This document shows positions 2-6,192 of a DNA stretch of 6,981 bases, in pieces; the stretch's first letter is position 1; every line of letters begins with the position of its first letter. The stretch is from the IMG/VR virus record IMGVR_UViG_2695420514_000012; one strand, 5' to 3'. Position numbers and translations under genes: made by a program. The stretch is from a virus (Duplodnaviria > Heunggongvirae > Uroviricota > Caudoviricetes). The notes beneath the pieces are model-generated. The model was not told the DNA's origin. It made no database searches and was given only the letters and a program-made list of their open reading frames with translations.

Positions 2-133
2 GCTGTTTACGGTGCGCAGGGGGTCAAAGTGCCACTGAATGATGCGCTTCTTCAGTGGGAGAAGGAGCATACAGAAGGCACCTCAGATCCATTTGCTGAG
101 ATTGAGAAGGCATTATTTGTTGCTGCTCGGTGA
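2..133 (+). CDS. 3' end of an upstream gene (partial, start lies outside the window); probably the tail assembly chaperone (G-T type) by synteny
   Basis: Open frame from position 2 to TGA at 131-133, translating to AVYGAQGVKVPLNDALLQWEKEHTEGTSDPFAEIEKALFVAAR*. Same strand and similar GC to the tail genes downstream. The identity as the T/GT chaperone is inferred only from its position upstream of the tape measure gene; I do not recognise the sequence itself. Confidence 0.4.
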   Translation, partial: AVYGAQGVKVPLNDALLQWEKEHTEGTSDPFAEIEKALFVAAR

Positions 134-142
134 TCTTTTCAC

Positions 143-173
143 TTGACTGGATTATTATTCCCATTTTATTGAG
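143..173 (+). promoter_or_regulatory. Putative sigma70-type promoter for the moron ORF
   Basis: TTGACT at 143-148 is a near-consensus -35 hexamer. The -10 is ambiguous: TTTTAT at 164-169 or TATTGA at 167-172 in the AT-rich stretch about 15-18 bp downstream. The assignment is weak and an upstream promoter could drive this gene instead. Confidence 0.25.
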
Positions 174-190
174 AAAGTAAGGAAACATTG

Positions 191-532
191 ATGGAATTTT
201 TACTTATTTCAATAGTTTTGGGACTAATTCCAGCTATTATTGCGAAAAGCAAAGGTCGCTCATTTTTAGGATGGTGGGTATATGGTGCGATGATCTTTAT
301 TGTTGCTCTGGTTCATTCGCTGGTAATCCAAAGAGATGAGAAGGCACATGAACAACAAATGGTAAGCAATGGCATGAAGAAATGCCCTTACTGTGCGGAG
401 TTGATCAAAGAAGAGGCTATTAAATGTAAGCATTGCGGTAGTGATTTAATTTGCAATGCAGATAGTTCCGTTTCACAAAAAACGGATGATGAATATCTTC
501 AGGAAGCAAGGCGTAAGGCCGGACTTCTTTAA
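191..532 (+). CDS. Hypothetical small membrane protein with two predicted TM helices and a C-terminal CxxC-x10-CxxC zinc ribbon (moron gene)
   Basis: ATG at 191 is preceded by AAGGA (179-183) at 7 nt spacing; the ORF track start at 188 is a TTG one codon upstream. Stop TAA at 530-532. The protein [51 protein letters not shown]... has two hydrophobic segments (about aa 3-18 and 25-46) separated by the basic loop KSKGRS, then CPYC(aa 65-68)...CKHC(aa 79-82), then an acidic tail. The coding region is visibly more AT-rich than all flanking tail genes. Function is unknown. Confidence 0.7.
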
Positions 533-540
533 AGAATACA

Positions 541-564
541 AAAACCGCTTCGGCGGTTTTTTTT
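541..564 (+). terminator. Rho-independent (intrinsic) terminator downstream of the moron ORF
   Basis: AAAACCGC-TTCG-GCGGTTTTTTTT: a 4-bp GC stem (545-548 with 553-556) extendable by A:U pairs (541-544 with 557-560), a UUCG tetraloop (549-552), and an uninterrupted T8 tract (557-564). It lies 9 nt after the moron stop and 10 nt before the tape measure start. Confidence 0.75.
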
Positions 565-574
565 CGTCCGGAGA

Positions 575-3500
575 ATGAGTGTGGCGACATTACGTGAACT
601 GATTATTAAAATCTCGGCAAACTCCCGGTCATTCCAGTCAGAGATCTCCCGGGCTTCGCGTATGGGGCAGGATTACTACCGCACCATGCAGAACGGAGGC
701 CGACAGTCTGCTGCTGCATCCCGTGAAATGCGGCGTGCACTGGCAGAAGTGACGGATCAGATAAATACAGCTAAATCTTCGGCACTGAATATGGCTGGGG
801 CATTTGCCGGGGCTTTTGCTACCGGTCATCTTATTTCTCTCGCCGATGAGTGGAATTCAGTAAATGCCCGTCTGAAGCAGGCCTCACAGTCCAGTGATGA
901 TTTTCAGGCATCACAGCGTGAATTAATGGCGATCAGCCAGAGAACGGGGACGGCGTTTTCTGATAACGCCAGCCTTTTTGCCCGTTCTGCAGCTTCCATG
1001 CGGGAGTATGGTTACAGTTCTGAGGAAGTACTGAAAGTCACCGAGGCGATCTCTACTGGCCTGAAATTATCCGGTGCCAGTACAGCAGAAGCCAGTTCGG
1101 TGATCACGCAGTTCAGTCAGGCTCTGGCGCAGGGGGTGCTGCGCGGTGAAGAGTTTAACTCGGTGAATGAGAACGGCGATCGTGTTATTCGTGCGCTGGC
1201 TGCGGGAATGGGAGTTGCCCGTAAGGATCTGAAGGCCATGGCGGATAACGGAAAGTTAACTGCCGATAAGGTTGTTCCTGCACTGATTAGTCAGCTTGGG
1301 GCATTACGTGATGAATATGCGGCAATGCCTGATACGGTTTCATCCTCTGCAACCAAAGTTGAAAACGCCTTTATGGCCTGGGTTGGTGGTGCGAACGAGG
1401 CAAGCGGAGTGACGAAGACGCTCTCCGGTGTGCTGAATGGTATTGCAGGCAATATTGACACCGTGGCAACCGCTGCCGGTGCTCTGGTTGCTGTCGGGGT
1501 AGCCCGATATTTTGGCAATATGGCGGCTTCTGCTGGATCTGCAACTGCCGGATTAATTACTGCAGCCAGAAACGAAGTAGCTCTTGCGGAAGCGCAACTC
1601 CGGGGGACACAGATAGCAACCGCCAGGGCGCGTGCGGCGGTTTATCGTGCGCAACAGGCGGTTGTTGCTGCTCGCGGTACCGAAAGGCAGGCAGCAGCAG
1701 AAGCGAAGCTGACAGTTGCCCAGGCGTCGCTTACCCGTAATATTGCGGCCAGAACAGCGGCACAGACAACGCTGAATAATGTTACGTCAGTGGGGAGCCG
1801 TCTGTTAAGTGGTGCGCTGGGGTTGGTTGGTGGTGTGCCGGGACTCGTCATGCTGGGGGCGACGGCTTGGTACACAATGTATCAGAATCAGGAGCAGGCC
1901 AGAGAATCTGCACGCCAGTATGCCGCAACAATCGACGAAATTCGCCAGAAAACGTCGGCAATGTCGCTTCCTGAAACGTCAGATAATGAAGAAAAGACGC
2001 GGCAGGCACTGAAGGAGCAGAACAGGTTAATTGACGAGCAGAAAAGTAAGATCAAATCCTTACAGGAAAAAATTGCCGGCTATCAGTATGTGCTGGCAAA
2101 CCCGGGCTGGACAACCGATAACGGTTTTATGATTAACCATATGACGTCGGTAAAAACTGTCACAGAAGGGCTTGCAGAAGCAACAAATCAACTGGCAGTT
2201 GAACAGTCTCGCCTAACTCAAATGCAGGGTAAAGCGCAATCCATTCAGGATGTGCTTGCCGGGCTGGAGGAGCGGCGGGTTGCGTTGATCCGTCAACAGG
2301 CAGCGGAACAAAACAAAGCGTATCAGTCCATGTTGATCATGAATGGGCAGCATACCGAGTTTAATCGCCTTCTCGGGCTTGGTAATGAATTACTTCAGCA
2401 GCGACAGGGGCTGGTGAATGTACCGTTACGGCTGCCACAGGCCACCCTGGATGATAAACAGCAGACCGCACTGAATAACAGCGAGCGCGAACTGGCTCTG
2501 TCCCGCCTGAAGGGGGAAGCCCGTGAGCGTGCCCGACTGGGTTATGCTGCGGATGATCTCGGCTTTGTGGGAGAGGCGTATCAGACAGCCAGACAGAATT
2601 ATATCAATAACTCACTGGATGCCTGGCGAAATAACCAGGCAAATAAACCCAAAGCGCATAAAAAGACCGAAGCGGAAAAAACAGAAGATATTTATAAACG
2701 GCTGATTAAACAGCAAAAAGAACAAATAGCACTGGCAGGTCAGAATACTGAACTGGCCAGGATGAAATATCAGGTCAGTCAGGGCGAATTATCAACCCTG
2801 TCAGAAGCGCAGAAAAAAACGCTTTTACAGAATGCGGCACTCATCGACCAGAAAAAGATTCGTGAGCAGCTTGCCGCGTATGAAAGCAGTCTGGCGGACA
2901 GTAATGCCAGCGCCCGGGCATCTGACGACGCGCAGTTGCTGGGATATGGTGAAGGCTCACGGATGCGTGAACGACTCCAGGAAATGTGGAGTATCCGGCA
3001 GGCGTTTGAGCAGAAAAATAACGAGCTGCTGAGACAGTATCAGGCCGGAGAAATTGAAGAAGCCCTGTGGAAACAGGAAAAATCGCTGAATGAAAAATAT
3101 CTGGAAGAGCGTCTCAGCGATCAGCAGGATTATTATGCAAAGGCTGATGCTTTACGCAGTGACTGGAATGCCGGACTCCAGGAGGGGCTGACGAACTGGG
3201 CAGACAGTGCCACCGATTATGCTTCGCAGGCGGCAGATGCTGTCGTTTCCACTATGGACGGGCTGGTATCAAATATTTCCGATGCACTGGCCGGAAATGT
3301 TGTGGACTGGCGAAACTGGGGGAGTTCAATCCTCCAGGAAGTTTCAAAAATTCTGATGAACGCTGCCATCGTTAACGGGCTGAAGTCACTTTCCAAAAGC
3401 ATGTCCGGTGCCGGAGGATGGCTTGGTACGGTCGGCGACTGGCTTTCCGGTGCAGTGGCAAACGCAAAAGGTGGTGTTTACACATCGGCAAATCTGAGTG

Positions 3501-3820
3501 CTTACAGTAACACTATTGTGGATACACCGACGTATTTTGCTTTTGCGAAAGGTGCCGGGCTGATGGGCGAGGCCGGGCCTGAAGCTATCATGCCACTGAC
3601 ACGGGCAGCGGACGGCTCTCTTGGGGTCAGAGCCATTGGCAATGTGAATGGTGGCGGGGGATTTGTTTATTCTCCCGTGTATCACATCAGTATTCAGAAT
3701 AAAGGGAGCAATGGCGAGATAGATACGCAGTCAGCTAGGGGGCTGGTGGATCTGATCGACAGCAGGGTTGTGTCAATTATGCAGTCATCACGTCGGGACG
3801 GAGGATTATGCAGTGCCTGA
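575..3820 (+). CDS. H: Tail length tape measure protein (lambda gpH-like C-terminus; 1081 aa)
   Basis: Single 3246-nt ORF ending TGA at 3818-3820. The C-terminal third (roughly from ...DWNAGLQEGLTNWADSATDY... through ...GAGGWLGTVGDWLSGAVANAKGG...) resembles the lambda H C-terminal region as I recall it. The N-terminal part is Ala/Gly/Ser-rich and helical like a tape-measure core; there is a hydrophobic Gly-rich segment (LLSGALGLVGGVPGLVMLGATAWYTMY) and a long Q/E/K/R-rich predicted coiled coil. It sits immediately upstream of M-L-K-I-J. Start is ambiguous: ATG 575 has GGAG only 1 nt upstream, whereas the in-frame GTG at 581 has canonical 7-nt spacing. Confidence 0.92.
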   Translation: MSVATLRELIIKISANSRSFQSEISRASRMGQDYYRTMQNGGRQSAAASREMRRALAEVTDQINTAKSSALNMAGAFAGAFATGHLISLADEWNSVNARLKQASQSSDDFQASQRELMAISQRTGTAFSDNASLFARSAASMREYGYSSEEVLKVTEAISTGLKLSGASTAEASSVITQFSQALAQGVLRGEEFNSVNENGDRVIRALAAGMGVARKDLKAMADNGKLTADKVVPALISQLGALRDEYAAMPDTVSSSATKVENAFMAWVGGANEASGVTKTLSGVLNGIAGNIDTVATAAGALVAVGVARYFGNMAASAGSATAGLITAARNEVALAEAQLRGTQIATARARAAVYRAQQAVVAARGTERQAAAEAKLTVAQASLTRNIAARTAAQTTLNNVTSVGSRLLSGALGLVGGVPGLVMLGATAWYTMYQNQEQARESARQYAATIDEIRQKTSAMSLPETSDNEEKTRQALKEQNRLIDEQKSKIKSLQEKIAGYQYVLANPGWTTDNGFMINHMTSVKTVTEGLAEATNQLAVEQSRLTQMQGKAQSIQDVLAGLEERRVALIRQQAAEQNKAYQSMLIMNGQHTEFNRLLGLGNELLQQRQGLVNVPLRLPQATLDDKQQTALNNSERELALSRLKGEARERARLGYAADDLGFVGEAYQTARQNYINNSLDAWRNNQANKPKAHKKTEAEKTEDIYKRLIKQQKEQIALAGQNTELARMKYQVSQGELSTLSEAQKKTLLQNAALIDQKKIREQLAAYESSLADSNASARASDDAQLLGYGEGSRMRERLQEMWSIRQAFEQKNNELLRQYQAGEIEEALWKQEKSLNEKYLEERLSDQQDYYAKADALRSDWNAGLQEGLTNWADSATDYASQAADAVVSTMDGLVSNISDALAGNVVDWRNWGSSILQEVSKILMNAAIVNGLKSLSKSMSGAGGWLGTVGDWLSGAVANAKGGVYTSANLSAYSNTIVDTPTYFAFAKGAGLMGEAGPEAIMPLTRAADGSLGVRAIGNVNGGGGFVYSPVYHISIQNKGSNGEIDTQSARGLVDLIDSRVVSIMQSSRRDGGLCSA

Positions 3821-4154: not shown

Positions 4155-4852
4155 TGCAGGATATACAACAGGAAACACTGAATGAGTGTACAAAAGCGGA
4201 GCAATCCGCACTGGTCGTGCTCTGGGAAGTCGATCTGACCGAAGTCGGTGGCGAGCGTTATTTTTTCTGTAATGAGCAGAACGAAAAAGGTGAGTCAGTC
4301 ACCTGGCAGGGGCGACAGTATCAGGCGTACCCTATTCAGGGAAGCGGCTTTGAGATGAACGGCAAAGGAGCCAGTGCAAGACCAACGCTGAAAGTCTCTA
4401 ACCTGCACGGCATGGTCACCGGGATGGCGGAAGACCTGCAAAGTCTGGTCGGCGGAACGGTGGTCAGGCGTAAGGTTTACGCCCGTTTTCTGGATGCGGT
4501 GAACTTCGTCAACGGAAACATCGAGGCAGACCCGGAGCAGGAGGCGATCAGCCGCTGGCGCATCGAGCAGTGCAGCGAACTGAGCGCAGTGAGTGCCTCC
4601 TTTGTACTGTCCACGCCGACGGAAACGGATGGCGCTGTTTTTCCGGGACGTATCATGCTGGCCAACACCTGCACCTGGACCTATCGCGGCGATGAGTGCG
4701 GTTATCACGGTCCGGCGGTCGCGGATGAATATGACCAGCCAACGTCCGATATCACGAAGGATAAATGCAGCAAATGCCTGAGCGGCTGTAAGTTTCGCAA
4801 TAACGTCGGCAACTTTGGCGGCTTCCTTTCCATTAACAAACTTTCGCAGTAA
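4154..4852 (+). CDS. L: Minor tail protein L (tail tip assembly, Cys-rich C-terminus)
   Basis: ATG at 4154 overlaps the M stop (cTGATG); stop TAA at 4850-4852. The 232-aa product is the same length as lambda gpL, and the sequence MQDIQQETLNECTKAEQSALVVLWEVDLTEVGGERYFFCNEQNEKG... through ...CSKCLSGCKFRNNVGNFGGFLSINKLSQ is close to lambda gpL as I recall it. Confidence 0.93.
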   Translation: MQDIQQETLNECTKAEQSALVVLWEVDLTEVGGERYFFCNEQNEKGESVTWQGRQYQAYPIQGSGFEMNGKGASARPTLKVSNLHGMVTGMAEDLQSLVGGTVVRRKVYARFLDAVNFVNGNIEADPEQEAISRWRIEQCSELSAVSASFVLSTPTETDGAVFPGRIMLANTCTWTYRGDECGYHGPAVADEYDQPTSDITKDKCSKCLSGCKFRNNVGNFGGFLSINKLSQ

Positions 4853-6163: not shown

Positions 6164-6192
6164 AAACCGCCTCAGGGCGGTTTTGTCGTTTC
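6164..6192 (+). terminator. Terminator-like hairpin in the I-J intergenic spacer (possible attenuator or RNA-stability element)
   Basis: AAACCGCC (6164-6171) pairs with GGCGGTTT (6176-6183) around loop TCAG (6172-6175), giving 8 bp with 5 G:C pairs, followed by the T-rich but interrupted tail TGTCGTTTC. It is weaker than the 541-564 terminator because much of the U-tract is used in the stem. Confidence 0.35.

Follow-up and report, generated by a model that had tools for sequence, protein, structure and literature searches.

Positions 540 to 564 of the window, by which we mean the whole stretch of 6,981 nucleotides analysed here, are shaped like a canonical Rho-independent terminator of the coding strand. 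The element probably functions as such a terminator and is part of the junction between the tail genes T and H of the HK97-type tail module, in an HK97-like E. coli prophage. It lies between the ORF of a 113-aa zinc-ribbon protein, which ends with TAA at 530–532, and the tape-measure gene H, and it reads AAAAACCGC-UUCG-GCGGUUUUU+UUU on the plus strand, with a C(UUCG)G tetraloop. The 48-nt gap before H runs AGAAUAC-AAAAACCGC-UUCG-GCGGUUUUU-UUU-CGUCC-GGAG-AAUGAGU-GUG; the hairpin starts 7 nt past the TAA and the T-run stands 5 nt ahead of GGAG, the Shine-Dalgarno (SD) sequence of H. Four GC pairs (CCGC/GCGG) form the core of the stem, and the remaining stem is A:U, made by the A5 tract with the first U's in up to five pairs. 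This GC-rich stem-loop is on the coding strand and 3′ of a coding region, and the T8 stands behind the stem without a gap. An earlier note made from the letters of the window had placed a hairpin with a T8 tract here, inside the tail operon, which the sequence confirms. The coordinates of all features are collected in Table 1.

Table 1. Features of the window around the T-H junction and at the I-J junction.
Feature	Position	Strand	Basis
Tail assembly gene T, 3′ end, stop TGA 131–133	2..133	+	Pfam Phage_tail_T, PGAP, L001/L002 comparison
Candidate promoter region of inserted ORF	130..170	+	Own consensus count; two weak options
Inserted ORF (moron cargo), 113 aa	191..532	+	Pfam Zn_ribbon_3, phrog_8436, PGAP start 191 in L005
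Terminator-like hairpin	540..564	+	Form and statistics of sequence, conservation in relatives
5′ arm of hairpin, AAAAACCGC (A5 540–544, CCGC 545–548)	540..548	+	
Loop of hairpin, UUCG	549..552	+	
3′ arm of hairpin, GCGGUUUUU (GCGG 553–556)	553..561	+	
T-run of hairpin, T8	557..564	+	
Shine-Dalgarno GGAG of H	570..573	+	Read from sequence; conserved in zinc-ribbon and cargo-less junctions
Tape-measure gene H	581..3820	+	Pfam Phage_HK97_TLTM E 8e-95, TMP_3, Tape_meas_lam_C; start alignment
Second terminator-like hairpin, AAACCGCC-UCAG-GGCGGUUU then UGUCGUUUCUGG	6164..6184	+	Fold and score

The RNA folding check proposed in the earlier note came out in favour of the hairpin: the fold of 541–564 had −9.9 kcal/mol and a z of −3.65, a value equalled by none of 200 shuffles. 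The fold of 533–564, with A540 included, reached −11.3 kcal/mol with nine pairs, and the 12-nt GC core by itself only −5.4 to −5.9 kcal/mol. Apart from this T-run, the 6981 bases contain no stretch of seven or more T. All T-runs, plus and minus strand alike, were given a hairpin plus T-tract score of the d'Aubenton-Carafa type, whose values are trustworthy for ranking only. By this ranking the hairpin (d = 22.2) was the top site of the window on either strand, the runner-up being at 6167–6184 (d = 12.4), and 22.2 was reached anywhere, on either strand, in 2 of 200 whole-window shuffles that preserved the dinucleotides. The hairpin is more than a chance occurrence. The built-in terminator scan reported the site on the minus strand only, since its greedy stem extension consumes the first five T's in A5/T5 pairs and so misses the plus-strand site; this call is an artefact of the rule and not evidence against the plus-strand site. 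Rfam, searched over the whole window at gathering thresholds, gave no match, unsurprisingly, since it does not curate simple terminators as families.

Canonical E. coli intrinsic terminators, reportedly described by d'Aubenton Carafa in 1990 and reviewed by Peters, Vangeloff and Landick in 2011, resemble the element in the C(UUCG)G tetraloop, the contiguous U8 and an upstream A-tract able to extend the stem, whereas its GC stem, with four pairs, is short against the 5–14 pairs usual for them. The description "strong intrinsic terminator" in the earlier note stands for the canonical form, but "strong" is unproven, with four GC pairs and a core of −5.9 kcal/mol that is near the weakest of the 19 variants compared at the site (median −9.9, range −5.5 to −13.2). 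Despite this near-weakest core, the T-run of the window hairpin is the longest among the 19 variants. The efficiency of termination may be modest and might hinge on the UUCG loop together with the stem extension by A/U pairs.

The distance from the hairpin to H depends on which start is taken. An in-frame ATG at 575 is 10 nt past the T-run and is not conserved as a start. The GTG at 581, 16 nt past the T-run and 7 nt past GGAG, aligns with the ATG of relatives, as visible in ...GAGAATGGCG... and ...AATAATGGCC..., and is used by PGAP in a near-identical prophage and also in the record of vB_EcoS-640R1. The 10 nt given earlier thus hold for ATG 575 only, and with the conserved start become 16 nt. 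GGAG is downstream of the predicted termination point. The H product has 1079 aa and shares 92% identity with its HK97 counterpart at the N-terminus. Downstream of H follow genes in the M, L, K and I positions and the start of J, named after the annotation of the near-identical prophage.

The DNA ahead of the hairpin behaves as a moron. Window 98–542 is extra with respect to close relatives and its GC content is unlike that of the flanks (28–45% over 100–550 vs 50–60% in T and H). From about base 98 the T gene differs from cargo-less relatives, its last 11 codons being of a different but homologous type, and homology to these relatives resumes at 543, so that 98–542 can be delimited as an exchanged cassette. 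Nine named phages that share both flanks lack this segment, as do 62 IMG/VR loci and the majority of 902 E. coli genomes. In a megablast search against phage records, 13 E. coli phages were matched, nine of them on both sides of the ORF and without about 400 middle bases. The 43-aa T fragment at the left edge matched Phage_tail_T with an E of 0.0011, below the curated cut-off, and was called "phage tail assembly protein T" by PGAP in the near-identical prophage.

The cargo ORF is preceded by its own SD (AGGA 180–183). Its product has a hydrophobic N-terminal half, which is probably membrane-spanning, followed by a CxxC...CxxC zinc ribbon (Zn_ribbon_3 in Pfam, residues 62–86, E 1e-8), and it matches phrog_8436, a family of unknown function, with an E of 2e-50. 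PADLOC returned spurious weak hits only for the cargo, and no similarity to HK97 gp15 was found by BLASTP (E 0.3 over 11 residues). The protein occupies the site of the superinfection-exclusion gene 15 of HK97; a role of the cargo in exclusion is a guess.

Two weak promoter options were recognised ahead of the cargo, and the built-in promoter scan called none at 130–170. Option 1 combines a −35 GTGATC (130–135) and a −10 TATTAT (153–158) over a 17-nt spacer; option 2 combines TTGACT (143–148) and TTTATT (165–170) over a 16-nt spacer. A T-A-x-x-A-T hexamer (TATTAT, TATGAT or TAGGAT) occurs 28–33 nt ahead of the cargo ATG in all eight zinc-ribbon cassettes examined, and a −35 of GTGA type, 17 nt before that hexamer, overlaps the T stop. 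Counterparts of option 1 at the same distance to the cargo start are GTGAC(A/T)-17-TAGGAT in six other zinc-ribbon cassettes and ATGATC-17-TATGAT in one more (L003). Judged from these sequences, option 1 would be the better promoter candidate, if a weak one.

The T-H junction was compared in relatives. IMG/VR was searched with the first 200 H residues of the window and of HK97, and one genome per species was searched with an alignment of seven H N-termini; 10 other enterobacterial genomes were included. This gave approximately 175 T-H junctions in total, with some contigs found twice. A GC hairpin was present 11–19 nt ahead of the H start in all of them, directly followed by at least six T in all but two types, one with UGUUUU (L156/L169) and one decayed (L171). 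About 20 different hairpin sequences occur at the site, the loops varying and the stems being kept.

Across the loci compared (L006–L178) the junction harbours at least nine unrelated cargo genes, nearly all predicted to be small membrane proteins, lipoproteins or secreted proteins: zinc-ribbon proteins of 110–115 aa, gp15/YebO-like proteins of 59–62 aa, a 92-aa protein, lipoproteins of 113, 121 and 137 aa, and secreted proteins of 113, 125 and 199–200 aa. In two loci (L104, L113) with a 541-nt gap, the scan found no ATG-started ORF of at least 40 aa. The hairpin type tracks the cargo type and not the H backbone. In one locus (L006) the H N-terminus is 100% identical to that of the window, yet the cargo is a lipoprotein, the hairpin is CCGC-AGAA-GCGG and the ribosome-binding region of H is different.

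Within cargo families the stem is kept while the sequence changes. In the 125-aa family a compensatory change from A-U to G-C distinguishes CCCACC/GGUGGG from CCCGCC/GGCGGG (L095 vs L127), and U.G wobbles occur in L131, L136 and L075. The 137-aa family displays the loops UAAAAA, CGUU and AAUU plus one U.G wobble, and one member of the gp15 family has a U.G wobble where another has C-G. Altogether the structure was kept despite sequence change by one compensatory pair and three wobble changes. Among zinc-ribbon cassettes, which differ by 17–35% at the DNA level, no invariant stretch is longer than the 22-nt block AAACCGCTTCGGCGGTTTTTTT. The core hairpin is unchanged in Leclercia, Enterobacter, Superficieibacter and the uncultured enterobacterium UBA5654, where H is 64–78% identical and the zinc-ribbon cargo is conserved together with the same hairpin. 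The compensatory changes that the earlier note looked for in relatives carrying the same cassette are thus not there; the hairpin shows no changes at all, and compensatory and wobble changes occur only in sister cassettes at the same site. We infer from these alignments that the invariant zinc-ribbon hairpin may be a minimal stem that tolerates no change, its stabilising tetraloop included.

The distance from the stop codon to the stem ranged from 7 to 26 nt across cargo families. A ribosome at the stop codon occluding the hairpin, considered as a conserved read-through device, was rejected as a general explanation on account of this variation; such occlusion may nevertheless apply to this cassette (7 nt) and to the cargo-less junction (8–10 nt).

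The hairpin is also found where there is no cargo. The same AACCGCTTCGGCGGT(7–9) lies 8–10 nt past the T stop in 62 of approximately 166 viral (IMG/VR) loci, the 62 being without an inserted ORF, and in named phages that likewise have none. In these 62 cargo-less loci, all with CCGC-UUCG-GCGG, the T-H gap is 45–47 nt. Phages vB_EcoS-640R1 and Evi have the T stop, then GTCAACAT, then the same AACCGCTTCGGCGGTTTTTTTTCGTCCGGAGAATGAGTGTG. Of the complete E. coli genomes, 902 matched window 100–700 and only 45 of these had the cassette ORF; among the remaining matches listed, nearly all start at window 543, within the 5′ arm, and most of the 902 genomes probably carry the same hairpin, judging by these alignments. 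Two more cargo-less junctions, found in distant relatives, have other hairpins, GCCCGC-GCU-GCGGGC with U6 in Phytobacter and CCGC-UGCG-GCGG, with the T-run decayed to UAUUUAA, in the symbiont Candidatus Pantoea multigeneris (L171, 1472–1500), where the element may be eroding in a degenerating prophage. The segment GTCAACAT between the T stop and the hairpin contained no usable trace that would distinguish deletion of an ORF from an ancestral cargo-less state.

In one group of near-identical cargo-less loci the length of the T-run varied between T8 (n = 37), T7 (n = 17) and T9 (n = 2). This variation resembles homopolymer slippage and never goes below seven.

The zinc-ribbon cargo is always accompanied by a terminator-like hairpin, and the identical hairpin occurs also where there is no cargo. 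On the sequences compared, the hairpin is a constant part of the junction and not private to the moron. The earlier note took the hairpin as support for independent expression of 191–532; with the same hairpin present in 62 loci without cargo, it is not evidence for this, and the claim of independent expression rests on the promoter, which is weak. Likewise, as many cargo-less genomes carry the hairpin, confining moron transcription cannot be the sole reason for its existence.

An element of this kind is already known. The first moron described was gene 15 of HK97, at the same T-H position, and morons are defined by having their own promoter and terminator, gp15 being expressed from the prophage (PMC3594210). 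Their architecture in lambdoid phages is a promoter, a gene and a terminator inserted in the late operon (Juhala et al. 2000, as summarised in PMC3594210). The HK97 record (NC_002167) has a "putative terminator" at 8398–8422, immediately behind gene 15 and with 12 nt left to H, and the HK544 record (JQ086374) has a "rho-independent terminator" at 8350–8372, in the same place. In both phages, as in the window, a GC hairpin with T7–T8 follows a small membrane-protein insert between the tail assembly chaperone gene (G/T) and H, 12–16 nt before the H start, in a tail module of the same type. The window differs from HK97, which has ACCCGC-UAUCA-AGCGGGU, by its CCGC-UUCG-GCGG, with four GC pairs vs 5–6, and by a 113-aa zinc-ribbon cargo vs the 62-aa YebO-like gp15; it differs from both HK97 and HK544 in that its hairpin is found also in many cargo-less genomes. 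Like lambdoid morons, the segment is extra DNA of a GC content below the flanks with a terminator-like hairpin at its 3′ end in a probably Q-dependent late operon. Unlike the lambdoid moron model, its promoter is weakly predicted and its terminator is common to cargo-less relatives, and the terminator may predate or outlive the cargo. In HK022, whose tail module is different, T and H are separated by no moron and no hairpin; the feature therefore belongs to the HK97-type module and is not shared by lambdoid phages at large. With the annotations of HK97 and HK544 as precedent, the window presents a new sequence variant with a different cargo.

The window ends short of the late regulator, and Q was seen in a proxy, the prophage of E. 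coli CUVET18-1475 (L005), which is 99.5% identical over window 100–700. In this prophage a Q gene (PF06323, E 2e-91) is followed on the same strand by tRNAs, lysis genes, terminase and HK97-type head and tail genes. Polymerase modified by Q, as in phage lambda, is expected to ignore intrinsic terminators, and a Q gene in a near-identical prophage makes read-through in lytic growth plausible. Because plaque-forming HK97 carries such hairpins in its tail operon, they presumably cannot block late expression. The proposal that the tail genes would be left unblocked by Q-mediated read-through is in this way made plausible by the gene of the proxy prophage, and otherwise follows by analogy with lambdoid late operons.

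Other hairpins are found in the same operon. A second one in the window (−15.2 kcal/mol, z −3.4), that of the second-best score given above, is situated in the 60-nt gap between I (stop 6145) and J (start at about 6206), without cargo; HK97 has the morons gp22 and gp23 at this junction. In the CUVET18-1475 prophage ACCCGCC-GCU-GGCGGGU with UUUUUAUUUU (U6) lies at 7603–7629 between the tail-completion and major tail genes, also without cargo, and this hairpin before the major tail gene was present in approximately 68 of 72 related IMG/VR loci, in variants that include a U.G wobble. When the 72 loci were scanned over 5.6 kb each, two recurrent positive-scoring sites only were found, before H and before the major tail gene. 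The HK97 record has putative terminators on either side of gp12, after gene 15 and before I, and the counterpart of the hairpin before the major tail gene is annotated there as a putative terminator. Taken at the level of sequence, terminator-like hairpins punctuate the HK97-type tail operon with or without morons.

The best-supported reading of the element at the T-H junction is that of a working terminator for unmodified polymerase which is bypassed by Q-modified polymerase. RNA polymerase without Q modification, be it from the weak promoter ahead of the zinc-ribbon ORF or, in a lysogen, from stray transcription, would transcribe CCGC-UUCG-GCGG. The hairpin would then form and extend into the A5/U pairs, and the U8:dA hybrid would release the transcript, with 3′ ends at about 560–564, upstream of the ribosome-binding site of H. 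A lysogen would accordingly contain a transcript of approximately 390–400 nt with the inserted gene only and no tape-measure message, whereas after induction Q-modified polymerase from the late promoter would read through. The insulation logic of a moron, as proposed earlier, fits the moron-like segment, the terminator form and the precedent of HK97, but the hairpin is not specific to the moron and the promoter is weak.

An alternative is that the hairpin belongs to the punctuation of the lytic operon independently of any moron, and that together with those before V and J it would set the ratios of the products (V, G and T much; H and J little), either by partial termination or as a 3′ hairpin shielding the V-G-T message from 3′-to-5′ exonucleases after processing. 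The occurrence of the same hairpin in the 62 cargo-less loci, and of others at the cargo-less junctions of Phytobacter and the Pantoea symbiont, speaks for this, as do the cargo-less hairpin and T-run before the major tail gene in most of the 72 loci, the hairpin before J in the window, the terminators annotated along the HK97 tail operon and the bracketing of the V-G-T block by hairpins. However, as Q-modified polymerase should by textbook knowledge disregard intrinsic terminators, the mRNA-stability version alone remains. Each cargo family moreover has its own hairpin type, and the hairpin and the H ribosome-binding region switch with the cargo while the H coding sequence is identical (L006 vs the window), which fits hairpins travelling with cassettes. 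We regard this alternative, which is compatible with a terminator for unmodified polymerase, as unlikely. It is far less probable that the hairpin is a passive remnant or hitch-hiker: what is left of the 3′ end of a zinc-ribbon moron after loss of its ORF, and a stretch of identity for recombination, with no selected function now. The cargo-less junctions of E. coli do bear only the hairpin type otherwise tied to the zinc-ribbon cargo, the window and cargo-less phages become homologous again within the hairpin, and the cargo-less hairpin of the Pantoea symbiont has an altered loop and a decayed T-run. Such a remnant is at odds with a hairpin and T-run that are invariant over 17–35% divergence of the flanks in several genera, with a structure kept in different sequences of sister cassettes, a compensatory pair included, and with none of approximately 175 junctions being without a hairpin.

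Least probable of all, and in our judgement highly improbable, is that the hairpin controls translation of H by sequestering or exposing the SD, or that it terminates antisense transcription from H. For the former, UUCUUU at 525–530 can pair with GGAGAA at 570–575 around the hairpin in a 56-nt fold. This pairing of the flanks has a z of only −2.0, and its 5′ partner is absent from cargo-less junctions and from cassettes of the L077 type; SD sequestration by these segments was rejected. For the latter, the hairpin read on the minus strand is AAAAAAAACCGCCGAAGCGGUUUUU then GUAUUCUUU, which the built-in scan calls, with a minus-strand d of 2.1. There is, however, no converging minus-strand gene or promoter, and relatives conserve the plus-strand T-run (T6–T9) and not the upstream A-run. 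Termination of unmodified polymerase on the plus strand remains the preferred reading.

A broader and in our judgement unlikely proposition is that the hairpins before V, H and J are resident, cargo-independent punctuation which creates safe harbours for morons, so that the terminator precedes and outlives the moron. If this were true, a gene landing between a stop codon and the hairpin would have insulation from the start, and cassette swaps would find their right-hand homology arm in the hairpin plus the ribosome-binding region of the gene behind it.

The element alone is of little weight: the feature was already described in 2000, for HK97, and the window adds a further case that had not been annotated. 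A hairpin and T-run that close each T-H cargo gene and persist without cargo nevertheless offer a practical annotation rule for morons of enterobacterial prophages, with the caution that a terminator beside an inserted gene is not in itself proof of independent transcription. As a small and experimentally tractable system, the junction could also help to decide whether terminators inside an operon act for the prophage, for lytic growth or for the exchange of cassettes.

The proxy prophage and the window are distinct. The CUVET18-1475 prophage is probably defective, and the window comes from another strain. An IS110-family transposase is found between the tail genes L and K of that prophage (L005, 13889–14908); the window is without it, and L and K overlap there at 4815–4852.
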